A stretch of DNA of 64,000 nucleotides from a phage, in the sequence record OZ335960.1; one strand, written 5' to 3'. Below, one piece after another: positions 1,495-59,937 of the stretch. Each line of letters opens with the position of its first letter. The stretch's first letter is position 1. The notes under the pieces are model-generated. The model was not told where the DNA came from and did no database searches. It worked only from the letters and a program-made list of their open reading frames with translations. Position numbers and translations under genes: made by a program.

Positions 1495-1644
1495 TTACTG
1501 CATGACTGTGATAACTGTCATGATAACACGTTGAATTCCGAACGCAAGAAGACCTCCTGCTACGGCAGGAACAACACCTAAACCCGCCAGTAAAATGCTA
1601 CCAGATACTAATGCAGCGCTTGTAATACCAATGAATGGACTCAT
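1495..1644 (-). CDS. small hydrophobic protein, 49 aa
   Basis: ATG overlaps gene 52 stop (ATGA); MSPFIGITSAALVSGSILLAGLGVV...; ends just before terminator. Confidence 0.35.
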   Translation of the reverse strand: MSPFIGITSAALVSGSILLAGLGVVPAVAGGLLAFGIQRVIMTVITVMQ

Positions 1645-2969
1645 TTGATTTCCTCTAAATCTTTGGTGTATTCTGTAACTACATCAGTAGTTTTCCAATA
1701 TTCGTTTTCTTCTTTCTTAGCTTTAGCTTCTTCGGCAAGTTTCTTTGCTTCGTCGGAAGTCATATGAAAAATATTCATTCCGACTAGTTTATCAACATAA
1801 GAAGAATACATATCAATTTTAGAAAGTTCTTCGGTCAGTTCTTTGCGAGTTTTACCTTGCACAACAATTTCACCTGAAATTACTTTCTTAATGAAATGTG
1901 CCTTGGCAAAAGCTAAACGAAATGCTGATTCAGTTTCTTTGATTTTGTTATCAATTCGTTTTTGGACATAAGTTTTACGAACTTCAACGAAGTCTTTGAT
2001 TAAATCAACTACATTATCGTAAACTTGCAGCTTTCCTTTCTCATTAATAACGGTGATATTCTGGGAACGACGCTCAATCAACCCAAAGTCTTTCATGATT
2101 TTTGCGTGGCGTTCTTCTTCGTTATCGCTCAAAGAATATTCTTTGCGGAATTTAACTTTGAAGCCAAAACCATGCTCACCACAAGCATCATCCCACGTAA
2201 TGAAGCCTTTATCTTCAAGCGGGTCTAAGATTTTACTCACATAAGTTTCACGATCATACTTATACGGAATCTCAGTGATATGCATTTGAGTTCGTGAAGT
2301 AAACTTGTATGTTCCACGAATTTCATATTGACCGTCAATTTCAACGACTTCACCACGAAATTCTGGGAATTCTACCTTCGGTTTAGTTACTTTCTTTCCT
2401 TGAAGAGCTTGCAATACAGCTTTCTTGACAGAAGAAACACTATGAGGAAGAATGTAAGTTGCATAACCAGTTGCAATACCGGAAACACCATTAAGAAGAA
2501 CAGTAGGAATAATAGGCAAATAGAAAGCAGGCGGAATGTGTTCTTTATCTTGATGTACCGGAGCATATTCAGTATCTTTATATACACTATAGAAATTTTT
2601 ACTTACACGAGCAAAAATATAACGACTTGCCGCTGCTTTTTGAACGGTACGAGAACCAAAGTTTCCTTGACCATCTAACAAAGGAAAGTTATTATTCCAA
2701 GTATTAGCCATCAAAGCACCTGCGTCTTGCGCAGAGTTTTCACCATGATGATATCCAAGGTCTGCTACACCACCTGCAATAGAAGCGAGTTTGTGAAACT
2801 TATCTTTATTTCCTCGTGCCAAATCAAGAGCTCGAGCAATAACAAATCGTTGAACTGGCTTAAATCCATCAATCATATTTGGGATAGCACGATTTTCAAC
2901 CGTGTACATAGCATAAGCCAATGCTTCATTATCAATGATACTTTTTAAATCGCGATTATTCAGTTGCAT
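1641..2969 (-). CDS. 52: DNA topoisomerase II medium subunit gp52
   Basis: 442 aa as in T4 gp52; GyrA-like N-terminal motif AIPNMIDGFKPVQR. Confidence 0.9.
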   Translation of the reverse strand: MQLNNRDLKSIIDNEALAYAMYTVENRAIPNMIDGFKPVQRFVIARALDLARGNKDKFHKLASIAGGVADLGYHHGENSAQDAGALMANTWNNNFPLLDGQGNFGSRTVQKAAASRYIFARVSKNFYSVYKDTEYAPVHQDKEHIPPAFYLPIIPTVLLNGVSGIATGYATYILPHSVSSVKKAVLQALQGKKVTKPKVEFPEFRGEVVEIDGQYEIRGTYKFTSRTQMHITEIPYKYDRETYVSKILDPLEDKGFITWDDACGEHGFGFKVKFRKEYSLSDNEEERHAKIMKDFGLIERRSQNITVINEKGKLQVYDNVVDLIKDFVEVRKTYVQKRIDNKIKETESAFRLAFAKAHFIKKVISGEIVVQGKTRKELTEELSKIDMYSSYVDKLVGMNIFHMTSDEAKKLAEEAKAKKEENEYWKTTDVVTEYTKDLEEIK

Positions 2970-3519: not shown

Positions 3520-3974
3520 TAGTATGCCTGCAAAACAAATTTAAAGTTATCAGCCAACATACGGTTCATTTCTTCAAGCGTTTGATATTCAGAATGATGA
3601 TTACGAGTAAACGCTAAAGCTAACTGGCCTTTTCCAAATCCTGTCGTCAGAGGTTTCATCTTAGAAGCAGGTAGATAAAATACTGTATATGGAACATTAT
3701 TATTTGCAATAGTACGCGCAAGCTGAGACCGACGCTGACGAATATGACTTAGAACTGCACTGAATCCTTGCTTAGAACGCTGATTACCTACATAAAATCG
3801 TGCAGATACACACGGACTATCAAATGGACCACCAAATTTACTCACTAAAAAGTAAAATCCAGGTGTAGATAAAATGTCTTTATGTGGAGTTCCAAAAACC
3901 CATTCACCGCCCTTGATTGTACCAATAACAGTAGCACCTGCATTATTCAAATCAGTAACAGTCATGTATTTCAT
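3519..3974 (-). CDS. ndd: Ndd nucleoid disruption protein
   Basis: 151 aa as T4 Ndd; position between denB and stp. Confidence 0.75.
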
Positions 3975-4033
3975 ATTAATTTCCTCTAATTATTTTCTAC
4001 TCCAAGGCCGCATGAATACACACGGCCGATAAA

Positions 4034-4351
4034 TTAATCGTCGCAGTCGACGCTCAATTCCCAGAACTCTTCTACAGTATAAGTTTCAGTATCGTTTTCA
4101 ATACAGAAACGTTCATTACTGTTATTTGCTAAAGTAGCATTAACTGTCATTTTCTCGCTAGTGCTCTTAAGAGGTGAAATACGAATTAACTGATCACCAC
4201 TATCCAAGCAAAAAATTTCGCCAACTTTTACATCTTTAAAAATTTTCATATTCACCTCAGGGAGTATAAAATCCAAATGCAGTTGTTGACCATCCCATCC
4301 AATACGGAAAATTTGCACCAACGTAAAACATGAGAATATAAAACCAACCAC
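4034..4351 (-). CDS. hypothetical protein (ndd-denB interval); true start may be internal ATG at 4249
   Basis: Six-frame ORF 105 aa; internal MKIFKDVKVGE start has SD GAGGTG. Confidence 0.45.
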   Translation of the reverse strand: MVGFIFSCFTLVQIFRIGWDGQQLHLDFILPEVNMKIFKDVKVGEIFCLDSGDQLIRISPLKSTSEKMTVNATLANNSNERFCIENDTETYTVEEFWELSVDCDD

Positions 4352-4363
4352 TCAGCAAATTCA

Positions 4364-4561
4364 TCATTTTACACCATTCCAAATTGTTTCAACCACAGAT
4401 TTTAAGCCATTTTGATGAATGTCCATTCCGACAACTGCCATCAAATAAATTCCAACTACAACTGAACCTAAGGCAAAAATCAGCATGAAAATGAATAAAG
4501 CTGGAAAAATATTATCGAAAAACCATTCAATAAATGTAAAAGCACTACGTTTACGCTTCAT
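4364..4561 (-). CDS. small membrane protein, 65 aa
   Basis: Start MKRKRSAF with SD GAGGAAAAT; hydrophobic core. Confidence 0.5.
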   Translation of the reverse strand: MKRKRSAFTFIEWFFDNIFPALFIFMLIFALGSVVVGIYLMAVVGMDIHQNGLKSVVETIWNGVK

Positions 4562-4568
4562 ATTTTCC

Positions 4569-4682
4569 TCACATAAATCCAAAGTAAGCGTTTAATACAT
4601 CAATCATTAAAACGATTGGGAATATACTCAAAACTACTAGTATTATAACTACATTCCATATAGCTTTAACAATCTTTTTCAT
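4569..4682 (-). CDS. small membrane peptide, 37 aa
   Basis: MKKIVKAIWNVVIILVVLSIFPIV...; SD GGAGG; the longer track ORF 5' part is read-through of the early promoter repeat. Confidence 0.45.
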   Translation of the reverse strand: MKKIVKAIWNVVIILVVLSIFPIVLMIDVLNAYFGFM

Positions 4683-4702
4683 TTTCTGTTCCTCCGTAGT
4701 TG

Positions 4703-4742
4703 ATAGTTGTATAGTACCACAGAGGAACAGTCTTGTAAACAA
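4703..4742 (-). promoter_or_regulatory. T4-type early promoter
   Basis: Conserved repeat GTTTACAagactgttcctctgtggTACTATAC on minus strand. Confidence 0.55.
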
Positions 4743-4957
4743 CTTTTTTAAAAATATTCGTAATAAATGTGAATACCAATCACTACTGCCGAAACTTGCG
4801 CAACCCACCACGCACAAGCAATAAGCACAGAATTCAAAATTTTCATAATAACCTCATTACAAAAGTAAATGTTAAACAAATTAATGGAATACTAATTAAC
4901 CAAACAAAACACCACCACAATGAACTCATAGTTCAATCTCAACGATTTTCATTTTAC

Positions 4958-5176
4958 TCAATAATCTGCTAAAAGATCGACGATTGCATCACGAAGACAC
5001 TTATTCGCAATACGTTTAAGAGCAATTTCAGTTTCTGGAGCATTTTGAATAATCATTGAATTCAATTCAGCCTCAGCAAACTGAAGTTCTTTAACTAATT
5101 CAGCTTTATATTTTCCTTGCCCTTTCTTAGCTTTTGCTCGTTTTAATTCAGCTGTAGTAAACATTTTATTCTCCAA
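4958..5176 (-). CDS. hypothetical protein, 72 aa
   Basis: Six-frame ORF directly downstream of early promoter with SD GGAG. Confidence 0.55.
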   Translation of the reverse strand: MENKMFTTAELKRAKAKKGQGKYKAELVKELQFAEAELNSMIIQNAPETEIALKRIANKCLRDAIVDLLADY

Positions 5177-5189
5177 ATCCGTATCAGTT

Positions 5190-5231
5190 GATAGTTGTAT
5201 AGTACCACAGTCCTTGTGGTATGTAAACCGT
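5190..5231 (-). promoter_or_regulatory. T4-type early promoter
   Basis: -35 GTTTACA / -10 TACTAT; spacer contains CCACA..TGTGG inverted repeat. Confidence 0.55.
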
Positions 5232-5245
5232 TTTGTGAAAATTTT

Positions 5246-5803
5246 TTAAATGGAAAGATACCATCCGTTGTAGTTGCTTTTTCTTACAACCTTACGAAGG
5301 TCTTCTCTATCACCGATGAACTTCGGAGTGTACTGGATGACACCTGGGTGAATTTCTTTAGTGTTGAATATAATTATACAGTCAGCGACCTGATGATTCA
5401 GAATGGGCCCTAGATTTATTCCAGAACCATATGGATACTCTCCGCTGCATCCTGTTGTTACAGAAATCCAACGTGAGTCAGTTTGATGTGTCTTAACTTC
5501 TACACGAAGCCCGCAATATCTTGGATGCGCCAATACATCCCATGCGTATGTATACGGGTCATTAACATCCTCTTGGCCTTTGTTAACATACCCGCTTAGC
5601 CAATCTGCTACAAAAAACTCTGCGTACACCGCGATACGACATCTTTCAATAACTTCTGCTTTATCCTGATTTGGATTTTGTTTTAAAGAGTATCTTGCTG
5701 TATCAGCAATTTTGACCTTCATTTCACTAGTCAAGTCACTGTTCGATAGGGTAAATGTCGGAATCTGAAATAGTCTCTGTAAACCCGGATTCGTTTTCTG
5801 CAT
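5246..5803 (-). CDS. denB: endonuclease IV DenB
   Basis: 185 aa as T4 DenB; position next to rIIB side. Confidence 0.75.
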   Translation of the reverse strand: MQKTNPGLQRLFQIPTFTLSNSDLTSEMKVKIADTARYSLKQNPNQDKAEVIERCRIAVYAEFFVADWLSGYVNKGQEDVNDPYTYAWDVLAHPRYCGLRVEVKTHQTDSRWISVTTGCSGEYPYGSGINLGPILNHQVADCIIIFNTKEIHPGVIQYTPKFIGDREDLRKVVRKSNYNGWYLSI

Positions 5804-7276: not shown

Positions 7277-9454
7277 TTAGGCCGCAAGGGCCTTCATAGT
7301 TTTAGCGATTTGTGAAACTTCATCATCACTTAAAGAGTTGCGATAACCGATGAAGTCGGAAACAATACGGAATTTCTTAGTAAACTCAGTAACCATTTTA
7401 TCACTGTTTTTTGAAGCATTGTTTGATAATACATCAAAAAGATTAGTTACTGTCCAGATGTCATGACCGATGGTACCTTTTCCACCGTTGAAATATATAC
7501 CCTGCAATGAACTAACCATATTACCAAGGCGAGTATATTCTTCAGAAACTTCATCTACACTGAAGTACTTCATCATAAAATCTAGTTCAGGATACTTAAT
7601 AATTTTATCAATATATCGTTTAGCTGAACTTGAATAACCTACATACTTATCATAATCTACAGCATCAAAAGCATCTACATATAAATCACGTAGAGTTTCA
7701 AAAATACATTGGCATTGACCGAGTTCTTTTACCTTTTTCTGTAAAAGCGGACGAATAACATAAAATTCATTAATGCCAATAAGATTAGCCATACGAGTCA
7801 AAATACTCGTAGATGGATGACAAAGAGATGTAGTACCATCCATAGAGAAAATATCAGAACGATGCATATATGCTACATAGCCAGTAATTTCATCTGCTTC
7901 TGATGTGAGTGTAAACAGTTCCTCTTTTTCCCAGCGTCCGTCTTTAATTTCAAACTTAAATGCAGTGGCAGCTTTAGGACGAGGAGCTTTACTTTTAACT
8001 ACCTTCGGAATATAACTTTTAACTAAAGCTTCAATTTCTGACAAATAATGAATGTTAACTTCATCACTTTCAAACATTGCCATAATATCAGGGAGTAAAT
8101 CAATCTGTGATTCTACTTCCGGATTAATAAACAGAAGACGCTCATTGTGATGAATATTCAAAGTGTTATTAAATTCACTATCATCTAATGCACGTGCTAA
8201 TCCACGGACAATATTAACACGATTTTTAGTATTATCAATAACAATATTAATTTTTGTTGTATTAATACCAAACAGACGATAACTTGATGCAACGGCTGAA
8301 GTTTCATGACTTTGCTTAATGCGTTTCAGTCGAGGGTCAAGATTTACTTCATACACAACCCCTGCATTGCATAGTTTACTATCAGGTTCAAACATGCTTT
8401 GCATCTTCTTATATGACAGATTTTTAGTCGTGAATTTGACTGAATTACTAATCATATAATCTCGAGCAGAATACCCCATCTTCATCAATTCACGGTATGT
8501 ATGACGAGGAGATGTAGATTCTTTAAATCGTTTTACATCTTTATTAAATGCCTTCTCACTGAGCTCTTTAACACGCTCAATAATATTTTTACGAGTACGA
8601 TCATCTAATGAAAGAGCCTCACGCGATGGAGCAATATCAAGTGAACCCATTGGAAACTTAATGTAATTCACTTCATTGCGGATGCTTAACCAGTTACGGT
8701 CTCTAATAACACCATCAATAGGATAAACAATACCACCATAGATAGCATATAATCCACCGCGATCTGGCCAGTATCTTTCTGGATTTACACCGTAATAGTC
8801 ATCAAAATCAGGAAAATAATCAATTTCGCGGTCAAGACCATTAATGATAGCCAAATCTTTGAATGGCCGCATGATATAAGAAACTTCATAAGCAAAGTTT
8901 CTAAAGTCTTTTTCTTCAACTGGAACTACGATTTCAATACCAGTTTTATCGTTTGGACCCATTTCTTTTACGAATGTAGGTTTAATTTGCGGACCATCAC
9001 CATCCATGTAAGCTACATAACCACGAATTTCACCTTTATGATATGAAGTAATACTAAATGTATCAGTATAACTAAACGGAGATTTAGAACCTAAACCAAA
9101 TCCGCCAATGAAATCGTTAGATTCAGCCTTAGATGAACTAAAGTATGAATTATACAACCCAGGAGAATTATCATCACCTTGAATATCAAAATCACTCATA
9201 CCCGGACCAAAATCTCGACAAACAAATCGCGGATCTAATCGTCCTGGAACTTGAATGATAAATTTTTCAGGATTTCCATTGAGAGCATGGGCATCAATCA
9301 TGTTGGTAATCAATTCACGGACTACTGCGCGAATCCTGTTTGTATACAAATCAGATGACAGAATTTTAAATACTTTAGGAGATGCTGTGATGCTAAATGC
9401 TTTTGATTTAGAACCATTACCAAGAATTGTTTCTTTTTCAGTGGTGATAATCAT
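7277..9454 (-). CDS. rIIA: rIIA
   Basis: 725 aa as T4 rIIA; order rIIA-rIIB. Confidence 0.9.
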
Positions 9455-9464
9455 AATTTCCTCA

Positions 9465-9668
9465 TTAATTCATATTGCGTTTAATAACTTCAGCGACTTC
9501 TAGTAGTTCATCTTTAGTTGCAGTGTCAGATTGAATTTTATCTCTAATATCCTTAAAGCGGTTTTTAAACTCTTCGGCTTCTCCCATATCGAAAAAGCGT
9601 TGAATGATTCTATATTCTCGATGAACTGCTTTATCAAAAAGTTCTAAATTTACTTTATATGATTTCAT
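9465..9668 (-). CDS. hypothetical protein (rIIA.1 position), 67 aa
   Basis: Six-frame ORF downstream of early promoter. Confidence 0.55.
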
Positions 9669-9687
9669 TTCAATATCCTCATTTGCC

Positions 9688-9721
9688 CAATTAATTATAC
9701 CACATCCTTGTGGTAAAGTAA
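9688..9721 (-). promoter_or_regulatory. early promoter (-35 GTTTAC, 18 nt, -10 TATAAT)
   Basis: Minus strand GTTTACtttaccacaaggatgtggTATAAT. Confidence 0.6.
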
Positions 9722-9722
9722 A

Positions 9723-11540
9723 CTACTGGCTCATCCATTCTTTACGAAGGTCAGCATTATCTCCCATGAGCATTTCAAAAAGCTCTTTCCAGTTCTCAGG
9801 AAGTTTAACAACATCATATACCGGGTTTTGAATCATCTCACGATATTCAGATTTTTCCAAAGAGCCAAGTCCCTTAATATAACGGATGCTATGTTTAGGT
9901 AGAGCATCTTTGGCACTCTCATATTCAGCGACTGTATAAAACCATTCTTGTTTTTTACCGACCTGGGCGATGATTACAGGAGTTTTGACGAAACGAATTC
10001 TTCCTTGTTCAAACAGTTCTGGCCAATTACTAAAAAATCCGAGCAGAGAAGGATAAATGCTTCCTAGACCATCGTGGTCAGCATCGGTCATAATAGCAAT
10101 ATTATGATAATTCAAGTTTTCAGCTTTTTCACCAAGAACTAATCCAGTGATTGCGCAAATATCAAATAGTTCTTTGTTTTTAAGCATATCAGCATATGAC
10201 ATACCCCAGCTATTAAGAACTTTACCACGCAATGGATAACCACCATGAAGTTCTTTATCACGAACATCAATAAGATATCCGATAGCAGAATCACCCTCAG
10301 TCAAGAAAAGAGTAGTATCAGCATCTTTACCGCAAAGATTCGCTTTAATGTGTTTATGAACCTTAGCTTTAGAAGCCTTTTTAGCTGCTTTAGTTTCTGC
10401 TGCCTTTTCTGCCGCCAATTTACGAGCCAAGGCAGCTTCAATAATTGGCATTAAAATTGCTTCATTATTTAAAATAGCACGTGAAATCTTTTTAGCATCA
10501 AGCTGAATATGACTACGAATTTCACCAAATGGAGAAGTCAAACGCTCTTTAGTCTGAGAATCAAATCGCATGTTTTTCATATCACGAACAAACATAACGA
10601 TAGTCAAACATTCTTTAACCCGTGCTTTAGTTACATCAATTTTAAACTTGCGTTTGATTTGTGGAATAAGGTCTTCACAAATATCATCCATAACGCAGTC
10701 AATGTGATGGCCACCATTCTTAGTATGAATGTTATTGACGTATGTTAATTGACGAAAACCATCCGGTGAACGACCGACTGCAATAGAACAGTTTTCCTGT
10801 TCTTGAACGATAGCATGCTCATCATATTGGCGTGCATATTTCTTAAAATTACCCTGAACCTTTTTACCATTAAAGGTAAATTGAATATCAGGATAAACTA
10901 CTGCAAGTGTCTGGAGACGATCCAGTGTAATGTCAAGATAAACTTGAGATAGCTCATTAGTTTCAAATGACATAAAATCAGGAATGAAAGTAACACGAGT
11001 TCCTTTCCATTTTCCAGGAATAGTTTCCCATGATTTATTTTCCATGCCATTTGAACAACGAACTACAATATTATTTTGACCGTCGCCAGTTTCACCGACA
11101 AACATCACAGAAAAAATGTTAGTTAAACTAGAACCAACACCGTTCATACCGCCAGTGACGCGTTCTTTATCATCACCAAAGTTACCACCTGCTTTTGGAA
11201 TAGTCCATGCAGCAACAGGACCAGGAATTTCTTCACCAGTAGGTGTTTTAACCATCGCTTGCGGAATACCACGACCGTTATCTTCAACTGTTACTTGATT
11301 GTTTTTGATAGTAACATTAATTTTATTCGCGAATTTAAACTTAGTACGAATACCTTCATCTACTGAGTTATCGATAATTTCATCAATAAGCTTAACAAGA
11401 CCAGGTACATACTGAACACTTTCCCATTTACCAAACAGAAAGCGCTCATGCATTTCATTAGCAGAAGAACCAATGTACATGCCGCTACGCTTTTTGATAT
11501 GTTCAATATCGCTCAGAATTTTAATTTCATTCTTAATCAT
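9723..11540 (-). CDS. 39: DNA topoisomerase II large subunit, fused 39/60 form (605 aa)
   Basis: GyrB-like ATPase N-terminus; C-terminus ...NIAIMTDADHDGLGSIYPSL contiguous, no split or bypass; ATG at 11540. Confidence 0.9.
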   Translation of the reverse strand: MIKNEIKILSDIEHIKKRSGMYIGSSANEMHERFLFGKWESVQYVPGLVKLIDEIIDNSVDEGIRTKFKFANKINVTIKNNQVTVEDNGRGIPQAMVKTPTGEEIPGPVAAWTIPKAGGNFGDDKERVTGGMNGVGSSLTNIFSVMFVGETGDGQNNIVVRCSNGMENKSWETIPGKWKGTRVTFIPDFMSFETNELSQVYLDITLDRLQTLAVVYPDIQFTFNGKKVQGNFKKYARQYDEHAIVQEQENCSIAVGRSPDGFRQLTYVNNIHTKNGGHHIDCVMDDICEDLIPQIKRKFKIDVTKARVKECLTIVMFVRDMKNMRFDSQTKERLTSPFGEIRSHIQLDAKKISRAILNNEAILMPIIEAALARKLAAEKAAETKAAKKASKAKVHKHIKANLCGKDADTTLFLTEGDSAIGYLIDVRDKELHGGYPLRGKVLNSWGMSYADMLKNKELFDICAITGLVLGEKAENLNYHNIAIMTDADHDGLGSIYPSLLGFFSNWPELFEQGRIRFVKTPVIIAQVGKKQEWFYTVAEYESAKDALPKHSIRYIKGLGSLEKSEYREMIQNPVYDVVKLPENWKELFEMLMGDNADLRKEWMSQ

Positions 11541-11565
11541 CACTTATCCTCGTTTGGTTTCGGGA

Positions 11566-11593
11566 ATATTATACTCCGGTAATCATAAAGCTA
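11566..11593 (-). promoter_or_regulatory. middle-type promoter (MotA-box-like GCTTTA, 12 nt, TATAAT) upstream of gene 39
   Basis: Minus strand tAGCTTTAtgattaccggagTATAAT. Confidence 0.45.
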
Positions 11594-11611
11594 AAGGCCC
11601 GAAGGCCTTTT
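11594..11611 (-). terminator. UUCG-loop hairpin
   Basis: GGCCUUCGGGCC on minus strand after upstream ORF stop. Confidence 0.45.
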
Positions 11612-11882
11612 ATTTAAAACGGATAGTCGAATCCTTGAAGAATAGACCAGAACATACGGTTCCTTCTACTTTCTGCCCGGTAGGTCCAATAGCACGAAAT
11701 CCAGTATGTTGGAAATCATTTTCAGAGCAACCGAACCAATTGTATCCAGTGATTTCAATATTAGTAAAACCGCTTGAAGACAAAACTTTGGTTGCATTAT
11801 CAGCATCAGTACATCCTGCTAAAGACACTGCTAATACTAATGCCGCGATAGAACGATTAACATATTTCATAATTTCACTCAA
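11610..11882 (-). CDS. predicted lipoprotein, 90 aa
   Basis: Signal peptide plus lipobox LAGC. Confidence 0.55.
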   Translation of the reverse strand: MSEIMKYVNRSIAALVLAVSLAGCTDADNATKVLSSSGFTNIEITGYNWFGCSENDFQHTGFRAIGPTGQKVEGTVCSGLFFKDSTIRFK

Positions 11883-12246
11883 ATTTAATGGCTTGAAGGA
11901 GACTAATAATTCTTAAACGGCTTCTTTCATCTTTAACCGTAAAAGAAAGAGGGTCGCCAGATTTCATAGTGATAGTGCATTCAAAACTAAAATCTTCAGG
12001 AACTTCTTCGAAGAAGTCAAATTCTTCATCATATATTAGAACATTACTCTGAAAACTGTGAAGAATTTTTCCGTCATTTCCAGATGCTGTACTAATCATT
12101 GTAACATTATTACCTTTCATATCTTCAACGATAAATTCGCTTGTAGATATTACGGCATTAATAGAACCATTCCTATAAATAGAAGAAAGCAGATATTTCT
12201 TTTCTTCACCTTCACGAATGCGATATTTCTTACCGATTTTAAACAT
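11875..12246 (-). CDS. hypothetical protein, 123 aa
   Basis: Six-frame ORF; ATG at 12246 (track start is GTG). Confidence 0.5.
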   Translation of the reverse strand: MFKIGKKYRIREGEEKKYLLSSIYRNGSINAVISTSEFIVEDMKGNNVTMISTASGNDGKILHSFQSNVLIYDEEFDFFEEVPEDFSFECTITMKSGDPLSFTVKDERSRLRIISLLQAIKFE

Positions 12247-12248
12247 AA

Positions 12249-12425
12249 TCACCCTTTAAGTAAGTCATAAAATCCGCCATTCACATGCTTAGGAGCAGAA
12301 GGCCGACGAGTAGACAGACGATGGCATTTAGGGCAAACATCATTTTCTCGTTCAGAAATCTTTTTAATTTTTTCGTATTCATGCCCGCAATCTTCGGATT
12401 GGCATTTATAATCATACATTGGCAT
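12249..12425 (-). CDS. FmdB-like zinc-ribbon protein, 58 aa
   Basis: Hand translation MPMYDYKCQSEDCGHEYEKI...CPKCH; two CxxC pairs. Confidence 0.5.
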   Translation of the reverse strand: MPMYDYKCQSEDCGHEYEKIKKISERENDVCPKCHRLSTRRPSAPKHVNGGFYDLLKG

Positions 12426-13075: not shown

Positions 13076-13357
13076 TTAATTGAACAGTGGAGCGATGCGT
13101 TTCAGAAGAGTGGCAGCACCTTTGGCGAATTTTACATCATGAAAAACAGTTTCTTCTTCCGTTACAACACGAACTTTAATGTTTTCACAATCCCAATTTT
13201 TACGAACAATCTTCAAAAGCTGCAGTAAATCTTTACATTCAGCAATATCGATAACACATCCACGAGAATCTTCCATTATCGCACGATAACCGTAAGCCAT
13301 ACCATAATCGTTGAAAGATTGTTCGATGATAATTAAGTTTTCCATTTTATTCTCCAA
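13076..13357 (-). CDS. hypothetical protein, 93 aa
   Basis: Six-frame ORF downstream of degenerate early promoter repeat. Confidence 0.5.
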   Translation of the reverse strand: MENKMENLIIIEQSFNDYGMAYGYRAIMEDSRGCVIDIAECKDLLQLLKIVRKNWDCENIKVRVVTEEETVFHDVKFAKGAATLLKRIAPLFN

Positions 13358-14016: not shown

Positions 14017-14559
14017 TTAATTCAAAATAGCTACCACTGCACTACGAGGTACTACGCTAAAATCGCCTGCATGAACCACGTTCAGAAGTTCAACACCATC
14101 TTCAATCCACTGGTCTGTTACCCAACCACAGACCGAAACAAATGGAGTCTTAATAGCTACTGCACGAGTCAAAAGGTCAGTAGGATCGCATTCTTGGAAG
14201 AGGATAAGCTCTGCTTCAAAGACTATAGTTTTAATTACTTCATCATTATCTAAGCGTTGTGCTCGAATCACATAAGCTTTATTCTTATCATACCAATTAC
14301 TTTTTGAAAAACTTTTAACCACAAACTCGCCTTCACCAAAAACACTAGTCAATGCTTTATAACCCAAACTTAGTTCAGTAGTTTTAATTTCGGTTTCAAC
14401 CAGTTTGTAGGTTTTGCCAATTTCGATGGTCCGAGCAGTCATAAAGGTTTCCTTAATTTCCAGTGGTTTAACAGGGCATACATAAGTGCTTAAAACATCA
14501 AAATCAATCAATTTAGCTACCGGATTTGGTGTGTATTCAGGATTATAATTAAATTTCAT
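14017..14559 (-). CDS. hypothetical protein, 180 aa, paralog of 13443..13940 in C-terminal domain
   Basis: C.WVTDQWIEDGVELLNVV vs C.YITDQWVEDGVKLYNAV. Confidence 0.5.
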   Translation of the reverse strand: MKFNYNPEYTPNPVAKLIDFDVLSTYVCPVKPLEIKETFMTARTIEIGKTYKLVETEIKTTELSLGYKALTSVFGEGEFVVKSFSKSNWYDKNKAYVIRAQRLDNDEVIKTIVFEAELILFQECDPTDLLTRAVAIKTPFVSVCGWVTDQWIEDGVELLNVVHAGDFSVVPRSAVVAILN

Positions 14560-16084: not shown

Positions 16085-16304
16085 CTAAAACATAATCACT
16101 GATTGTGACAGTTTTCACTTCACCACAAAAGAATTCTAACGCAATCAAATCTCGTTCAATTTCTTCCAATTGAAGCATTAACTTGCCTGATTCAATTTTC
16201 ACGTTTTTGCGATTTTTACTATAAGCTATTTCATAAATTTCGCTCACTTTATCTTGAAGTAGATAAAACTGATCTTTAGTTATTTCCACGAATAGCTTCC
16301 TCAA
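16044..16304 (-). CDS. hypothetical protein, 86 aa
   Basis: Six-frame ORF. Confidence 0.4.
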   Translation of the reverse strand: MRKLFVEITKDQFYLLQDKVSEIYEIAYSKNRKNVKIESGKLMLQLEEIERDLIALEFFCGEVKTVTISDYVLGEISHLYKAVIND

Positions 16305-16536
16305 ATTTAATTAGTAATTTACAGACACTTTCATCTAGCGTAATTACCGTGTCTGTATTACTGTGATATGATTGTTTTTCAATTCGTTTAATTGCTAGTA
16401 TAGTATCACTTATAAGATTAAGCTTATAAAGGAGCTCAGCTCCTGTTACCATAACACTGAGGTTATCTTGCTTATCAGTATGCTTCTTTATACCATCTAT
16501 TAGACGATTTAAATATTTTGAATTGATGTTAATCAT
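16276..16536 (-). CDS. hypothetical protein, 86 aa
   Basis: Six-frame ORF. Confidence 0.4.
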   Translation of the reverse strand: MININSKYLNRLIDGIKKHTDKQDNLSVMVTGAELLYKLNLISDTILAIKRIEKQSYHSNTDTVITLDESVCKLLIKFEEAIRGNN

Positions 16537-22703: not shown

Positions 22704-22775
22704 GTAATTCTCCTTTTATTTAAATTACATGACTATTTATAATAAATTCTCACAGCTTTTAAGCTGTCGTTTATA

Positions 22776-23294
22776 TTAATAACCTCGGTCTTGACGAGCG
22801 AAGTTTTCGGCATTTTTTAGATAATAAAGTTTAAAGATTTCTTCAGCCGTAAGACCGAGACTCTGGAACATGTTCAGAACGAAATGAAGAATATCAATCA
22901 TTTCAAATTTAATTTCCAACTGGTCTTGTGGAGATAAGTCAGTAATCAGAGTTTCACGACGTTCACCGTGTTGAGCTTTCCACGGCTTCCATACAGCAGA
23001 TGCATCTTTTTCGCCATTGCTCATACCACCAAGAGAAGTCAGTAGTTCGCGGAATTCATCATCAATATAATCTTTCTGATTACGCAGCCAATCAACAACT
23101 TCACCTGCGGTAGCCAAATCATCAGGATGACGGTTATATTCAGGTTTATCTTTAGCTAAACGAACCTGCAGAGATTTCTGCATATCAAGCATAACTTGCA
23201 GCGGATCTTTTTCATCACCGAGAATATCCCAGTATTCGTTTTGAGCTTTATCAGCGCCTTCAATCAGTTGTGAACATTCATTAAAGTAAGCCAT
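22776..23294 (-). CDS. 56: dCTP pyrophosphatase gp56
   Basis: 172 aa from ATG at 23294 with SD AAAGGA; MazG-like; T4 gp56 is 171 aa. Confidence 0.75.
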   Translation of the reverse strand: MAYFNECSQLIEGADKAQNEYWDILGDEKDPLQVMLDMQKSLQVRLAKDKPEYNRHPDDLATAGEVVDWLRNQKDYIDDEFRELLTSLGGMSNGEKDASAVWKPWKAQHGERRETLITDLSPQDQLEIKFEMIDILHFVLNMFQSLGLTAEEIFKLYYLKNAENFARQDRGY

Positions 23295-23365
23295 TATTTT
23301 TCCTTTCAATTCATGGGTTAGTAGATTAATTATACAATAAATATATAAAGCAATAAGGAGGACAT

Positions 23366-23566
23366 ATGGTACAAAAATTAATGGCACTTGTTAATGCCAT
23401 AAAAGGTAATAAAAGACGTATAGCTTTTACTATTTCTGCTATGGTAGGAATTTTACTTTGGAATTTTATTTTATCACCAATTGCTATTGCTCATGGCGTT
23501 AATATTCCAGTAATTACTCTTGATACATTCGTAGATTTAGCATTTGCTTTAGTTGGGTTAATTTAA
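23366..23566 (+). CDS. small membrane protein, 66 aa, plus strand
   Basis: Strong SD AAGGAGG 4 nt before ATG; two hydrophobic segments; intergenic between 56 and 61. Confidence 0.4.
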   Translation: MVQKLMALVNAIKGNKRRIAFTISAMVGILLWNFILSPIAIAHGVNIPVITLDTFVDLAFALVGLI

Positions 23567-27404: not shown

Positions 27405-28578
27405 TAAATTCTTCCATATCACTTAACTGATCTAGGTCAGTTTCTAAATCAGCTGCTGATTTACTTTTACTTTCTGGAGATTTAAATTTTTCAACCTTTG
27501 AGTTAATCAATTCATCAACTTCAGCTTCAACAATTTCATTACTATCAATAGCACCTAACTGATAAGCACGTTTAATAGCATCTCGGAATGGTTGATGCTT
27601 AAATAAAGGACCCCAGAATGTAGTGCAATTGGTATCTTTTGCACGCCAAGATTTTTCTTCGCGAATCATCTCGCCGGTTTCTTCGTCAAGAAATTCACGA
27701 GCATACCAGCCATTTTTAGGTTTTACCACAAATCCTAATTCAAGAGCCATATCTAACAATCCAGAATAAGGATCGATACCACCGTCAAATTTAACATCAA
27801 TAAAGAATTTACTTTTTTCTTTAACGGTACGAGATTTTTCTACATTTAGAACAAATTGATACCCCTGAAGATCAGAACCATCTTTAATCTGGCGCTTACC
27901 GATAATGAATACAGTATCAGCCGAATACATTACGCCTGTACCACCTGTCATCACGGTTTTACTAAACATTTCAATTGTTTCAATTGTATGGTTAACCGCA
28001 ACACATGGAATGTTTTTAATACTAAAATAAGGAGTAACAATACGGAATAATGACTTCAGTGATTTAGCACGAGTCATATCTGCCACAGATTTTTCATTCA
28101 AGGCATCTTCCGTTTCTTTCTTAGAAGCCATATTACCAATTGAGTCGATGAATACAATAACTTTTTCACCACGCTCAATAGCTTCAAGCTGATTCACCAT
28201 ATCAATTTTCAGCTGTTCAACTGACTGGATTGGTGTATGAATTACTCGTTCCGGGTCAACTCCCATGGATCGCAAATAAGCAGGAGTAATACCAAATTCG
28301 CTATCATAGAATAGACATACCGCGTCAGGATATTTGTTCAAATACGCCGCAACCATAGTCAAAGACATATTTGATTTAAAGTGTTTAGAAGGACCTGCAA
28401 AAATAGTTAAACCAGACTGCATACCACCGTCAATCGCACCTGAAATAGCGATATTAAGCATTGGGATTTTTGTACGGATTACATCCTTTTCATTAAAGAA
28501 TTTAGATGTAGTCAGTTCAGCAGTCATTTTAGAAGTGGAAGCTTTAATCAAACGGGATTTTAAATCTGCAATAGACAT
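27397..28578 (-). CDS. uvsX: UvsX recombinase (RecA-like)
   Basis: 393 aa; Walker A GPSKHFKS; acidic C-terminal tail. Confidence 0.9.
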   Translation of the reverse strand: MSIADLKSRLIKASTSKMTAELTTSKFFNEKDVIRTKIPMLNIAISGAIDGGMQSGLTIFAGPSKHFKSNMSLTMVAAYLNKYPDAVCLFYDSEFGITPAYLRSMGVDPERVIHTPIQSVEQLKIDMVNQLEAIERGEKVIVFIDSIGNMASKKETEDALNEKSVADMTRAKSLKSLFRIVTPYFSIKNIPCVAVNHTIETIEMFSKTVMTGGTGVMYSADTVFIIGKRQIKDGSDLQGYQFVLNVEKSRTVKEKSKFFIDVKFDGGIDPYSGLLDMALELGFVVKPKNGWYAREFLDEETGEMIREEKSWRAKDTNCTTFWGPLFKHQPFRDAIKRAYQLGAIDSNEIVEAEVDELINSKVEKFKSPESKSKSAADLETDLDQLSDMEEFNE

Positions 28579-28655
28579 TCATTTTTTCCATAGGCATCAT
28601 TATATTTTCCTCACTGGTTAAAGATAGAGTAATTATAACACAATAAATTTAGGCA

Positions 28656-29504
28656 TTAATCAACTGCTATTGGATGAATAGCATTAAACTTATGAAACGC
28701 TTCTGATTTTTCTTTGCGCGAAACACACATGCGAAGAACCTTTAATGGCTCGTCTTCTTCACCTAATGATTTTCGTTTTTCAATATTCGATGTTTTCCAA
28801 CGAGCTTGCTCTGGAAACTCTCTATTGATTTGCTCAAGCGCTCTATTATGTTTAGAATTACTACGAATTGAACTACATCCGCCTGGGGCTTGTGCTTTTC
28901 CAGATACAACCAGATATTTGAACAAGGCCAAATGCGGATAACCTTGATTAATTAAATTGAGAAATGCATACATATCTTCGCATAAATCAATTTTTCCATA
29001 CCCAATTTGTTCTGTTGTAAGTTTTCCAAGGTCATACCAGGTATTCGTGAATCCATATGAATTTTCACGATAATTACCCCAAGATGAAGTAATTTTAAAA
29101 ATAGGCAGACGAGCATGACCATGATAATACCCGCAATCCATGGCATCTTCAACGTATTGAATCAATTCATAGAACTGTTCACGAGTTAACTGATTAATTT
29201 TATCTACGCAGCGACGATCATCTTTCTTTCGCATTGAACTCATACGAATAGTAGTATCATCATCAATCATCCAAATTCGTTGACCTGCATACATATCAGT
29301 AATTGCTTTACGAGTACCAGCAATTCCGTTAACATCATCAGGAATAATTATAATTTTAGCTCTAGACCCGTAAGCGTCATAATAAGCTTTTTCTTCGTGT
29401 TCACGTACTACAATATGAGGTTCATAATCAGTCGGAAACATATCAAGGGCAGAAACTGCCCCTACGCGCTGATAGCTTGGAATTACGAATTGAATCATTT
29501 CCAC
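28656..29504 (-). CDS. DNA glucosyltransferase, probably beta-glucosyl-HMC-alpha-glucosyltransferase
   Basis: 282 aa in b-gt position but shorter than the ~351 aa I recall for T4 b-gt; size fits T2/T6 ba-gt. Confidence 0.6.
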   Translation of the reverse strand: MEMIQFVIPSYQRVGAVSALDMFPTDYEPHIVVREHEEKAYYDAYGSRAKIIIIPDDVNGIAGTRKAITDMYAGQRIWMIDDDTTIRMSSMRKKDDRRCVDKINQLTREQFYELIQYVEDAMDCGYYHGHARLPIFKITSSWGNYRENSYGFTNTWYDLGKLTTEQIGYGKIDLCEDMYAFLNLINQGYPHLALFKYLVVSGKAQAPGGCSSIRSNSKHNRALEQINREFPEQARWKTSNIEKRKSLGEEDEPLKVLRMCVSRKEKSEAFHKFNAIHPIAVD

Positions 29505-30235
29505 TCACCGTTATAATCTTTTTTCGCAATATGAGTTTCGCCAGTTTTCCACCAATGGTCAACCAAATAAAAATGACGGGAATACACATGAAGGCTTCCG
29601 ACATTCCATATAATGGAACCTGCTTTATACTGACGAGTTGAATCACCTGCATTCAAATCAGATACTAATTTATCTAGTACGTATTTTTGCCACGCATAAT
29701 CATTACGGAATCCGAAGACCACGTCATTTGAACGCATGCTTACTACTGCATTGACTTTCTTATCACGAATCAGGTACTGTACTGTATTCGTACACATGAA
29801 ATCTGACATACCATCTTTACGATAGTCAAACTGCATGGATGGGCGAGTATAAATCATGATACCACGCCGAGAATCAGGATTTTGACCAAGTTCAAATAAA
29901 CACATATCATACTGGGCATAGTTATCTTCTGACCAGATGGCCCAACCATAATTCGAGTTAATTTCGCCTTTAGAAGATGCTACCTGCTGCCAAATCTTTG
30001 GTGTTTCGCCTGGAATATCTTTAACAAACAAACTTTTAGATTTATACCATTCAAGTTCACGCTGAATGTATTCATCATTAAGAGCGCCAAAAATAAACGG
30101 TTCATCTGCTACAAATGATGCACCAATAATTTCAATAGTTTTAACACCAGTTTTATCAACTACGAAATCTTTTTCCTTTAATGCAAGCCCCAAATGAAGA
30201 CGGATTTCTTCAACTGTCATAGAGTCACTAATCAT
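29495..30235 (-). CDS. 42: dCMP hydroxymethylase gp42
   Basis: 246 aa as T4 gp42; thymidylate-synthase-like. Confidence 0.9.
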   Translation of the reverse strand: MISDSMTVEEIRLHLGLALKEKDFVVDKTGVKTIEIIGASFVADEPFIFGALNDEYIQRELEWYKSKSLFVKDIPGETPKIWQQVASSKGEINSNYGWAIWSEDNYAQYDMCLFELGQNPDSRRGIMIYTRPSMQFDYRKDGMSDFMCTNTVQYLIRDKKVNAVVSMRSNDVVFGFRNDYAWQKYVLDKLVSDLNAGDSTRQYKAGSIIWNVGSLHVYSRHFYLVDHWWKTGETHIAKKDYNGEWK

Positions 30236-39668: not shown

Positions 39669-40684
39669 TGTGTTGCCTCTACATATAACTGATTTGCATA
39701 TTGAATAAGTGCTTCGCGATCAGAATCAGTGATGTCTGGAATTGCATTAATGTATTCTTCCATCAACGTCTGAAGAGATTGAACTTCAACTTCTTCACTA
39801 TCATCTGACTCGACAGAGTTATCAATCTTTGACACAACTCGTAATGAATGCACAACTTTTTCTAGTTCAGATTCGAACTTCGTTAGATTTTTGTCTACTT
39901 CAGTTACTATAACACGTACTGATAGATTTGTAAAATCTTTATAGTCAATTTTTCCCTTAAATGGATACTGAATTCGACGATGCCAGGTAGTGTTGTTTGG
40001 AATAAATTCCATTCGTTCTGTTTCTGTATCAAACATCCAGAACCCGCGAGGGTCATTCTCGTCACCTGCAGTTAGTGTCCATGGTGTCCCAATATATCTG
40101 ACATTAGCAGCCTCAGAGATAGTATGGAAGTGACCAGACCACACCTCTTTATAAGTCTTAAGGAAATCAGGTTCAAGACCGTGAGATTTCATTCCTTTAT
40201 AAAAATAAAATCCATTCAGTTCCCAGTGACCAACACAAAAAGAAGCAGATGAAGTTTTGATGTGTTCAAGAATTTCACCAGTATTTTCTTCGCACATCCA
40301 AGGAATTAAATCAATCAAACATCCGTCAAAATCTACTGTAGCAGGCTTATCATATACTTTAACATTAGGATATTTAGCCAAAAGCTCAGTAGAAGCATTT
40401 GGATGCATTACATTTTTGTAGTGGAGATCGTGATTTCCTACAATAGTATGTAATGTGATTCCAGCGTCATCAAGCATTTGAACTATTTCACGGGCAAACT
40501 CCATTGTTTTATGCGTGATCGCTTTTCGCACATCAAAAATATCACCATATTGAATCCATACCGTAATTCCATTTTTCTTAGAATATTCTATCGCTTGCTT
40601 AATTCCATCAATTTGAATACCGCGAATCCACTCATCATCAGCTTTAACGCCTAAATGCCAATCACCCAAGTTTAGTATTTTCAT
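39665..40684 (-). CDS. 47: recombination nuclease subunit gp47 (Mre11/SbcD-like)
   Basis: 339 aa as T4 gp47; phosphoesterase motifs GDWHLG, GNHD. Confidence 0.9.
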   Translation of the reverse strand: MKILNLGDWHLGVKADDEWIRGIQIDGIKQAIEYSKKNGITVWIQYGDIFDVRKAITHKTMEFAREIVQMLDDAGITLHTIVGNHDLHYKNVMHPNASTELLAKYPNVKVYDKPATVDFDGCLIDLIPWMCEENTGEILEHIKTSSASFCVGHWELNGFYFYKGMKSHGLEPDFLKTYKEVWSGHFHTISEAANVRYIGTPWTLTAGDENDPRGFWMFDTETERMEFIPNNTTWHRRIQYPFKGKIDYKDFTNLSVRVIVTEVDKNLTKFESELEKVVHSLRVVSKIDNSVESDDSEEVEVQSLQTLMEEYINAIPDITDSDREALIQYANQLYVEATQ

Positions 40685-41285
40685 GATGTCTTTTCCATCC
40701 TAATTTAGCTGCTTTTGAAACCAGTTCTTTAATTTTTCCTTTTGCCCATTCAGGACCAGGAGGTTCATGACATAACATTTGCTTAACTCCGTTATTATAC
40801 CATTTTTTACCTTTATTATGTGATGAAGCTTTAAATTTATTTGACCTTCCTTTTACATAACCTTCTGGAATATAAGGTAAAAAGGCAGATTTTCCTGTTA
40901 ATGGATCATGTGAATGTATATTTCCTTTACAATTATGAGAACCATATAATGGATGATTTTGTCCTTTATTATCTCTTCCAAATGAACCTTTTGGAGCAGC
41001 ATATGACATATTAAAGAATAATGGATTTTTAACTGCATCATGCAATCGTTGATAATATAACTCGCATTTAATAGCTTCTTCACGCGTATCAAATTCAGCT
41101 AAAATGCATGAATCAAATAAGTGAGGATTATCTGAAAGCTCTTTATTATAAATTTTCTTATACTTTTTAGATAAAACTGAACCATGATATCCAGCTAAAT
41201 GCCTATCTAAAGACGTAGATCCAATATAAAAAGGAGGAAGTTTATCTCCATTATATATTGTTAAATAAGTTATATATTTTTTCAT
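40662..41285 (-). CDS. GIY-YIG family endonuclease-like protein (Seg-like), 207 aa
   Basis: N-terminal ITYLTIYNGDKLPPFYIGSTS..R...E...N pattern; basic Gly/His-rich C-terminal region. Confidence 0.55.
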   Translation of the reverse strand: MKKYITYLTIYNGDKLPPFYIGSTSLDRHLAGYHGSVLSKKYKKIYNKELSDNPHLFDSCILAEFDTREEAIKCELYYQRLHDAVKNPLFFNMSYAAPKGSFGRDNKGQNHPLYGSHNCKGNIHSHDPLTGKSAFLPYIPEGYVKGRSNKFKASSHNKGKKWYNNGVKQMLCHEPPGPEWAKGKIKELVSKAAKLGWKRHHENTKLG

Positions 41286-41461: not shown

Positions 41462-42664
41462 TTATTTTGTAATAATGTCAAATTGTTCTTTAAAGCAGAA
41501 GCTTGAATCTTGATGCTGATACAAAAATTCATAAGCTTTTTCGCGTTCACGGTCATAAAGAGTTCGGTCAGATGACAGTTCTTTAATACGCTCAAATGTT
41601 GATTCCATGTCATTTTCATCAAACCAAACGATACCGCTATCATGAGAAATTAACGGAGTATTATCAACACGGAATTTTAAATTTTCGCCAGTAGATTTCC
41701 AAAATACTGGAATTGTTCCACATGCACCAAGCTCGAGATGAGTATATTCTAAAGAACGTTGTAGATATTTTTTATCCAACTTACTCAGCTGATAACCAAA
41801 TCCGGATTTACTCATGCGTTCAAGCATTTCGCTATTTACATAACGGTCGAGAATTTGCGTTGGCAAATTAGGAGCAATTTTAATTTGGTCTACTTGATGA
41901 AGACGATAATACTCGTATGGAATTCCTTTTTCTTTAATAGGAATGAACGCTGGAGAACGTTCCAGACCTTCCATAATAGTACTTAGTCCAGCAGGTTTAA
42001 GATGTTTTTCGTGAAAATCAAACATCTGATAAAAACCTTTCCATGTAGTCGTACGACCAATCCAACGGTTGACATTCATGTTAATTTCAGAAACATCTTT
42101 CCAGTAGGTTGATCGAACCTTCGCAATATCCATAGGAGGCTGAAAGTTGTATACAGTCGGTGCTTCTTCAATATCATCAAACAGTGAAACAGTTTCTGGA
42201 TACCATTCTTTCATCAAAACTTTATTAAAATCACCATTATCAGAATGACTAAAAATAACATCAGCTCGACGAACAGTTTCTTCTAACCCCAAATTTCGGC
42301 GCAAAGAAAGAGAAGAATGGTCATGTTGATAAACTACAACACGAACCGAAGGTTTAATGTTATCAATAATTTTTTTATAGTTATTAATAGTGTCTTCTTC
42401 GACTGAAGTAGCAGGAACTGAATTGATAATTAGAATATCACAATCATTTACCAGCTTAAGTGTTTTATCGTATTCTTTTGCCAATAAAACCGGAATTGAA
42501 AATGATTTATAATCATGCGCGCAATTACGGGTAAATGATTTATCTTTAGCATAAACCAAAGTTACTTCATGACCATTTTTAATAAACCAATCACGTTGCT
42601 CGAGAGAAAATTTAGTTACGCCGCAACCTTCAAGACCTCTAGCCATAAAAATACATACTTTCAT
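41462..42664 (-). CDS. a-gt: DNA alpha-glucosyltransferase
   Basis: 400 aa as T4 a-gt; position between 47 and 55. Confidence 0.85.
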   Translation of the reverse strand: MKVCIFMARGLEGCGVTKFSLEQRDWFIKNGHEVTLVYAKDKSFTRNCAHDYKSFSIPVLLAKEYDKTLKLVNDCDILIINSVPATSVEEDTINNYKKIIDNIKPSVRVVVYQHDHSSLSLRRNLGLEETVRRADVIFSHSDNGDFNKVLMKEWYPETVSLFDDIEEAPTVYNFQPPMDIAKVRSTYWKDVSEINMNVNRWIGRTTTWKGFYQMFDFHEKHLKPAGLSTIMEGLERSPAFIPIKEKGIPYEYYRLHQVDQIKIAPNLPTQILDRYVNSEMLERMSKSGFGYQLSKLDKKYLQRSLEYTHLELGACGTIPVFWKSTGENLKFRVDNTPLISHDSGIVWFDENDMESTFERIKELSSDRTLYDREREKAYEFLYQHQDSSFCFKEQFDIITK

Positions 42665-42713
42665 TTAATATCCTCATTGTTTTGGTTTATTTTACCAAAA
42701 ATTTATAAAGCAA

Positions 42714-46999: not shown

Positions 47000-47470
47000 T
47001 TAATCATGTTTCCACACCCCATCGGTATTTGACCAAAGTCGCTGATTATCTGATCCTCGCCACAGCTTTTTGGTCGGAAGATTTTTCTCATACTTCCCAT
47101 CAATAATAACATCAACATATTTAAGCATTTCTAGTTGTTTAATATCTTCAAACTTATATCCTGTCCATAACCAAATGCTTTTATTGGGATAAAGATTTTT
47201 TACTGTTTGAACAATACAATGAACAACATCTCGGTTATCAGGATAGAGAGGGTCTCCTCCAGTTATAGTTAATCCTTCTATATAATCATTATTCAAACAT
47301 TCAATTAATTGTTCTAGTGTTTCACCAGTGAATGGAACGCCATTTCTAGCATTCCATGTTGATTTATTATAACACCCTTCGCATTTATGCAAACAACCAG
47401 TAACGAAAAGAACGACCCTGCATCCAGGGCCATTCACAAAATCGCAGGGATAAAATCTATCGTAATTCAT
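47000..47470 (-). CDS. nrdG: anaerobic ribonucleotide reductase activase NrdG
   Basis: 156 aa; radical-SAM cysteine cluster CLHKCEGC. Confidence 0.9.
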   Translation of the reverse strand: MNYDRFYPCDFVNGPGCRVVLFVTGCLHKCEGCYNKSTWNARNGVPFTGETLEQLIECLNNDYIEGLTITGGDPLYPDNRDVVHCIVQTVKNLYPNKSIWLWTGYKFEDIKQLEMLKYVDVIIDGKYEKNLPTKKLWRGSDNQRLWSNTDGVWKHD

Positions 47471-59477: not shown

Positions 59478-59935
59478 TCAGCCTTATATTCAATAACAGG
59501 ACATACTTTAGCTTTACGCGCTTTTAAAAATTCGACGATAATAGATTTCTTAGGTTGAATAGGAGGTAAACCTTTATACGCCCTATCAATATTTTCTACA
59601 TGTAAAGCATAATCCTTTTTCCATTTATAATCTTTATATTTTTCATGCAGTTGTGCAGGAATAACAAATGAACCAATAATAAGTAAAACAAGCAAAATGG
59701 CAAGTATAAATGCTGATGGAATAAGAGTCCATAGACTGCTAAAAATAATCCAACGCTGTAAACTTTCTGCGCAGATAATAGTTAGACCTGCGAGTATAGT
59801 ACATCCGAAAAAAGAAACGAAAAATGTAGGGATAACAATAGACCAAAAGTATGCACATAATGTCTTAGGTCGTTTCCATTCGTCGTTAAACATTTTGAAT
59901 AATTTATAATGCCAAGAGTTTTCATTAATAATCAT
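59474..59935 (-). CDS. multi-pass membrane protein, 153 aa
   Basis: Two long hydrophobic blocks; stop overlaps NTase ATG (ATGA). Confidence 0.5.
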   Translation of the reverse strand: MIINENSWHYKLFKMFNDEWKRPKTLCAYFWSIVIPTFFVSFFGCTILAGLTIICAESLQRWIIFSSLWTLIPSAFILAILLVLLIIGSFVIPAQLHEKYKDYKWKKDYALHVENIDRAYKGLPPIQPKKSIIVEFLKARKAKVCPVIEYKAE

Positions 59936-59937
59936 AA

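Follow-up and report, generated by a model that had tools for sequence, protein, structure and literature searches.

Phage T4 divides the large subunit of its DNA topoisomerase II between genes 39 and 60, with a translational bypass of a 50-nt coding gap in gene 60, whereas phages T2 and T6 encode it in one gene. A 605-codon open reading frame (ORF) on the minus strand of the DNA analyzed here, a window of 64,000 nucleotides, raises the question of which arrangement it represents, how the phage came to have it and what it says about the relation of the phage to T4. In a published comparison, the parental form is taken to be the unsplit gene, into which a MobA element was later inserted to give the T4 split. 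The element, ~1.1 kb long, enters the parental gene between amino acids 466-473 and D490/G491; in phage HY01, it deletes 64 nt and puts a diverged homologous region and the bypass there. Closely related element-free genomes are found in every clade (Manning and Atkins, 2022, bioRxiv 10.1101/2022.08.31.505936). Sequence comparison indicates that 9723..11540 on the minus strand is very probably gene 39 in its ordinary, uninterrupted form, from a Tequatrovirus other than T4. The original prediction had called this gene "fused"; its single ORF is borne out, with the caveat that the unsplit form is the one regarded as parental (bioRxiv 10.1101/2022.08.31.505936).

Gene 39 coding sequence and upstream signals

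The ORF list gives this frame as 9723..11543 on the minus strand, 606 amino acids from a GTG, and an ATG at 11540, one codon downstream, yields a protein of 605 amino acids beginning MIKNEIK. Read from this ATG, gene 39 is a single ORF of 605 codons plus a stop at 9723..9725, and the predicted extent of one 605-aa gene at 9723-11540 matches the ORF list. Every long ORF in this region is on the minus strand, with a GC skew that is negative throughout. The gene and the signals that precede it are as follows.

9723..11540, minus strand: gene 39, unsplit, DNA topoisomerase II large subunit (ATPase and Toprim), from the ORF list and the T2/T6 alignment
11547..11551, minus strand: Shine-Dalgarno sequence GAGGA, with 7 nt between GAGG and the gene 39 ATG, read from the sequence
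11568..11594, minus strand: putative T4-type middle promoter, consisting of a MotA-box-like ttAGCTTtA (11594..11586), a 12-nt spacer and TATAAT (11573..11568)
11607..11596, minus strand: hairpin GGCC-TTCG-GGCC, after the gene 39.1 stop and preceding the putative middle promoter

The assignment of a middle promoter upstream of gene 39 is suggested by the known MotA-box consensus. This element was not recovered in a sigma-70 scan because it has no -35 hexamer; over 9400..12400, scans for sigma-70 promoters and terminators returned fewer sites than shuffled sequence. Across the whole window, no Rfam family reached its gathering score, and neither a group I intron nor a known RNA element was found near gene 39.

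Alignment of gene 39 with its counterparts in T6 (MH550421) and T2 (MH751506) extended over 1818 nt with zero gaps. Identity to T6 was 96.15% at the nucleotide level, with 69 synonymous codon differences and a single non-synonymous one (Q526H); the glutamine at this position is shared by the window, T2 and T4 gp60, while T6 has H526. The T2 gene, also unsplit and 1818 nt long, was 95.71% identical, with 74 synonymous and 2 non-synonymous codon differences (F70L, T173D). Because the alignments are gapless and the codon differences nearly all synonymous, a chance ORF can be rejected, and by this comparison gene 39 is an intact gene under purifying selection. Its nucleotide distance to T2, T4 and T6 is roughly equal (~96% identity), and judged by these alignments the source phage is none of the three.

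Domains and affinities of the gene 39 product

The domains of a type IIA topoisomerase large subunit follow one another along gp39, and the gene for the medium subunit lies elsewhere in the window.

11094..11402, minus strand: GHKL ATPase core, residues 47-149 (38.4 bits with Pfam HATPase_c, whose cutoff is 26.4)
10389..10793, minus strand: transducer domain, residues 250-384 (51.1 bits with Pfam DNA_gyraseB, whose cutoff is 27)
10065..10313, minus strand: Toprim domain, residues 410-492 (Pfam Toprim, 17.5 bits, under the cutoff of 23.1; motifs read directly)
9729..9986, minus strand: domain C-terminal of Toprim, residues 519-604, corresponding to most of T4 gp60 (30.7 bits with Pfam TOPRIM_C, whose cutoff is 29)
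1641..2969, minus strand: gene 52, topoisomerase II medium subunit (GyrA-like, cleavage-religation), 442 aa (Pfam DNA_topoisoIV, E=9.5e-77)

The ATPase core carries the N-box and G-box motifs DNSVDE (57-62), DNGRGIP (87-93) and GGMNGVG (130-136), and the transducer contains the QTK loop with its lysine at 329-331, within QTKERL (329-334). Both Toprim motifs, EGDSA at 415-419 and the acidic DADHDG at 486-491, lie on one polypeptide. The Toprim score below the Pfam cutoff is offset by these motifs and by a solved homolog that covers the gap. A search of solved structures with gp39 identified PDB 8ylu_C, 604/605 identical over its full length, and the Toprim region of gp39 is identical to that of this T6 chain, in which the same residues are modelled. 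This chain is phage T6 gp39 (YP_010067157.1), which was assembled with gp52 and was active in relaxation assays (Xin et al., Nat Commun 2024, PMC11461880). The window protein is collinear with T6 gp39, has the same length of 605 aa and the same domain order, and has a nearly identical gp52 partner. An A-type partner is encoded in the window, where gp52 is identical to T4 gp52 at 440/442 residues. A protein 100% identical to the 605-aa gp39 occurs in at least 30 phage records, and 449 records contain one at 99% identity or more.

By analogy with the T6 enzyme, from which it differs at one residue, gp39 would function in ATP-dependent strand passage. The polypeptide would provide an N-terminal GHKL ATPase gate, a transducer with the QTK loop, a metal-binding Toprim domain and a C-terminal tail, and two copies would join two of gp52 in an A2B2 type IIA topoisomerase, as in T6. 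Such an enzyme would cut one duplex, pass another through it at the cost of ATP and reseal the break, and the phage DNA would in this way be relaxed and decatenated during replication.

Many phage records name the identical protein "DNA gyrase subunit B" or gyrB, and the gyrB and parE models are the best NCBIfam matches of gp39, as would be expected if gp39 were a bacterial-type DNA gyrase B and the phage possessed a supercoiling gyrase. The GHKL ATPase, transducer and Toprim domains, along with the E of EGDSA, the DxDxD motif and QTK, are indeed shared with bacterial GyrB/ParE and with eukaryotic Topo II, but these proteins are distant from gp39 in sequence, and gp39 is shorter than GyrB. The NCBIfam scores fall far under the family cutoffs (218 bits against 882 for gyrB, and 234 against 740 for PRK05644), and a PDB search with gp39 places eukaryotic Topo II chains (~205 bits) above gyrase B (~130 bits). 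Furthermore, because the partner gp52 has only 442 aa, with the DNA_topoisoIV cleavage core as its sole Pfam match, it has no room for the DNA-wrapping domain found at the GyrA C-terminus, and it was relaxation for which the near-identical T6 enzyme was assayed (PMC11461880). A phage gyrase is hence scarcely credible, and "gyrase B" is a loose name in many database records.

The 64-nt site and the MobA element

Comparison with T4 (NC_000866) divides the locus into two matching blocks. Window 11872..10123 matches T4 5661..3911, which includes gene 39.1 and gene 39 codons 1-473 (95.8% nucleotide identity over these codons), and window 10058..9415 matches T4 2793..2150, the rest of gene 60 plus rIIA.1, at 97.7%. 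At the protein level, codons 1-473 differ from gp39 residues 1-473 of T4T at 4 amino acids, and codons 477-605 differ from T4 gene 60 codons 32-160 at 2. The enzyme is the same in T4, as are the gene 39 neighbors rIIA, rIIA.1 and 39.1. The two blocks are separated by the following site.

10059..10122, minus strand: uninterrupted 64-nt stretch from the third base of codon 473 to codon 494, reading ...A ENLNYHNIAIMTDADHDGLGS; by blastn against T4, 64 nt stand opposite 1117 nt
10067..10070, minus strand: equivalent of the T4 50-nt coding gap, between Gly491 (GGT, 10070..10068) and Leu492 (CTA from 10067)

The 1117 nt of T4 comprise a 43-aa C-terminal extension of gp39, mobA, a 31-aa N-terminal extension of gp60, a diverged copy of the target (only 83% identical, window 10103..10069 against T4 2888..2854) and the 50-nt coding gap, which runs from a GGA take-off codon and a UAG stop to a GGA landing codon. 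The HNH endonuclease gene mobA is a pseudogene in the reference NC_000866 and intact in T4T (HM137666), and it has been listed among the free-standing HNH endonucleases of T4 (PMC2988022). In T4, the Toprim motifs are distributed so that EGDSA lies on gp39 and DxDxD on gp60, whereas both are on one chain in the window.

Across this site gene 39 reads GEKA-ENL-NYHN without a stop; codons 490-492 are a contiguous GAT GGT CTA, and the GGA-UAG take-off is absent. The peptide NIAIMTDADHDGLGSIYPSL, residues 480-499 of gp39, spans the Toprim DxDxD motif and the bypass point (Gly491 here, Gly46 in gp60) and crosses that point unbroken, which confirms the claim that the ORF continues through the segment equivalent to gp60. 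Alignment to T4 genes 39 and 60 and to T2 gene 39, proposed as a check on the prediction, was gapless against T2, while the T4 match is broken at the 64-nt stretch. The arrangement is directly of the T2 type, as had been stated: gene 39 aligns without gaps to both T2 and T6, with codons 466-500 compared base by base, and T4 has an extra 1117 nt. The asserted absence of gene 60, bypass and mobA holds across the 64 kb. Nothing better than E=0.28 was obtained by tblastn (best E 3.1 for MobA of T4T, 272 aa, and best E 0.45 and 0.28, both located elsewhere, for the gp39 C-terminal and gp60 N-terminal extensions), the T4 cassette produced only 11-12-nt chance matches to the window by blastn, and the bypass take-off hairpin was absent from the 64-kb window with up to 3 mismatches allowed. 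A hidden remnant of the MobA element in the window was considered and rejected, as no protein-level similarity was found.

A separate observation concerns the T4 reference itself. Residues 326-328 of gp39 from NC_000866, which adjoin the catalytic QTK loop, read LIR, while T4T, T2, T6 and the window have FDS. The DNA of the reference gene contains a paired -1/+1 shift at codons 326-328 and 355 (ATTGATTCGT against ATTTGATTCT), most likely an old sequencing error. The reference protein, NP_049621.1, is the one used for the fused T4 structure construct.

Both states were counted in phage records. In the GenBank phage collection, 444 records contain the 91-nt junction across the empty site as one contiguous stretch at 90% identity or more, 3 of them in identical form, while the T4 cassette was found in 43 records, including those of other species, such as HY01 (Tequatrovirus hy01). 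The unsplit gene 39 is therefore the majority state, at about 91% (444 vs 43 records). These counts bear on the possibility that the cassette is present in the phage and was collapsed or removed from the sequence during assembly or editing, which can be entertained as a general possibility alone. The junction is in frame and has independent counterparts in the three identical records and the wider set, the T2 and T6 alignments of gene 39 are gapless, and the other T4 homing-endonuclease genes of the interval are also absent, cleanly or by replacement. Their absence fits a genome poor in such elements rather than a local error, and an artefact of this kind is exceedingly improbable.

Another proposal is that the MobA element was formerly present in this lineage and was removed by recombination with a phage lacking it, which re-fused the gene. 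Homing elements have been repeatedly gained and lost in T4-like phages: insertions arose independently in several clades, mobA is degenerate or deleted in some cases, and "hit and run" remnants occur (bioRxiv 10.1101/2022.08.31.505936). The T-even genomes are also mosaic, and identity of the window to T4 ranges from 77% to 98% by block. Against secondary restoration, the window contains no trace of the C- and N-terminal extension peptides, its 64-nt site is of the parental T2/T6 type, with 2 synonymous differences from T2, and not the element's 83%-identical diverged copy, and the element-free state prevails by a large majority (444 records vs 43). A clean replacement would leave no mark; secondary restoration is nevertheless an unlikely history, and it would not change the identity of the gene. 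The reading preferred here is thus an ordinary Tequatrovirus gene 39 without interruption. In T4, as in about 9% of its relatives, a ~1.1-kb mobile element has entered the sequence encoding Toprim and split the gene into 39 and 60, bringing as cargo the gp39 C-terminal extension, the HNH gene mobA, the gp60 N-terminal extension, the diverged target copy and the 50-nt bypass. The source genome never acquired this element, or no longer has it, and its 64-nt target at 10059..10122 is therefore intact.

Experimental work on T2 bears on this target. According to Bonocora et al. (PNAS, 2011), as cited in bioRxiv 10.1101/2022.08.31.505936, T2 gene 39 is nicked by intact MobA, ~20 nt upstream of the bypass point, and mixed infection allows the cassette to home into T2. 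As related in the same source, protection against re-cutting comes from the bypass insert and not from polymorphisms, and the diverged target copy of T4 is nicked once the bypass is removed. The 64-nt target region of T2 encodes the same peptide as that of the window, with two synonymous differences, at codon 485 (ACC in the window, ACT in T2) and codon 489 (CAC in the window, CAT in T2). By analogy with T2, window 10059..10122 is an "empty" homing site that contains the region in which MobA nicks T2. MobA from a coinfecting mobA+ phage would be expected to nick and convert it, because the T2 site differs at only two synonymous positions and the more divergent T4 copy is reportedly cut without the bypass.

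Codon 485 lies ~20 nt upstream of the bypass point, and the diverged T4 copy also differs at codons 485 and 489. It is conceivable, if improbable, that the unsplit gene is a secondary state reached when the element was lost by recombination, or that the ACC and CAC changes at codons 485 and 489 reduce MobA cleavage. If true, synonymous site changes would be a natural route to homing resistance without the bypass insert. An IMG/VR scan for a 36-nt core of this site, in which both variable positions were set to Y, returned 3 contigs only, none with the exact variant of the window.

Relation of the phage to T4

The original prediction inferred from the topoisomerase gene that the phage lies outside T4 proper. 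Gene 39 alone is weak evidence for this conclusion, since the cassette is mobile and occurs in other species and its absence is the majority state; the conclusion rests on the whole window. Under the ICTV criterion, members of a species share about 95% nucleotide identity or more across their genomes. Window 7266-64000 aligned to T4 1-59000 with 93.65% mean identity over 88% of the length, which falls short of the ~95% that defines the species Tequatrovirus T4, on a comparison of about one third of the genome. The placement outside T4 proper is upheld by this value over 57 kb and by the absence of seven T4 homing-endonuclease genes. The nearest records over the first 25 kb are ECp13, Sfk20, ESh26 and KNP5, at about 97-98%. 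A record name may mislead in this regard. LR597657.1, deposited as "Escherichia phage T4_ev240", has an unsplit gene 39 with a 91-nt site identical to that of the window, and "T4" in a record name is therefore an unreliable guide to the split or unsplit state.

Six of the missing genes, segF, segA, mobB, mobC, I-TevII and mobD, gave no match in the window by tblastn at E<=1e-3, and no nrdD group I intron, the host of I-TevII, was found there by Rfam. The corresponding positions are as follows.

Near 22742..22812, 28567..29512, 42656..42679, 47450..47470, 48747..48748 and 59479..60440: T4-equivalent endonuclease sites

The source genome is poor in T4 homing endonucleases, like T2, and the empty mobA site represents one of seven missing genes; many other T4 relatives also lack the homing-endonuclease load of T4 in this region. 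A further ORF was noted at 40662..41285 on the minus strand, between gene 47 and alpha-gt, a position that is empty in T4. Its 207-aa product contains a GIY-YIG nuclease domain (Pfam E=2.8e-4, just under the cutoff) and looks like a free-standing, seg-like homing endonuclease; copies at least 95% identical are present in about 68 phage records, most of which leave the ORF unannotated or mislabel it "HNH endonuclease."

Other differences from T4 in the window concern DNA modification and nucleotide metabolism. T4 dam (DNA adenine methyltransferase) is absent at 23295..23565, in the region from gene 56 to gene 61, where 899 nt in T4 stand against 20 nt here, and no Dam homolog was found in the 64 kb. 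An uninterrupted junction without dam is shared by 311 phage records and is therefore a common polymorphism. Adjacent to it, gp56 (dCTPase; 22776..23294, minus strand) is only 73% identical to T4 gp56, while most genes of the window are 90-99% identical, and the adjoining segF is missing; the gp56 region is a known SegF target in T2-type phages. T4 segA and beta-glucosyltransferase (1941 nt) are replaced by a 280-aa ORF at 28656..29498, minus strand, of the TET-associated glycosyltransferase family (Pfam PF20691, E=6.4e-10), which may correspond to the enzyme responsible for adding a second glucose in T2/T6-type phages. If so, T2/T6-like DNA glucosylation would be implied. The alpha-gt gene is present and 90.5% identical to that of T4.

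Small ORFs without a T4 counterpart lie in the interval from gene 39 to dda, a typical trait of hyperplastic early regions in T-even phages. They include a 123-aa ORF between 39.1 and 39.2 (RB32ORF005c-like in the T6 annotation) and a 180-aa ORF with a motB-like C-terminus.

11875..12246, minus strand: small ORF without a T4 counterpart
13076..13345, minus strand: small ORF without a T4 counterpart
14017..14559, minus strand: small ORF without a T4 counterpart
16276..16536, minus strand: small ORF without a T4 counterpart

The occurrence of an unsplit gene 39 is already known (Bonocora et al., 2011; Manning and Atkins, 2022; Xin et al., 2024). The source phage adds one more element-free sequence to the published comparison, and no open question is made more testable by it. 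For annotation, the correct name is DNA topoisomerase II large subunit (gp39, unsplit) rather than "gyrase B," and there is no recoding signal to seek. With respect to the biology of these phages, gene 39 of the source phage is predicted to be a naive recipient site for the mobA/bypass cassette.
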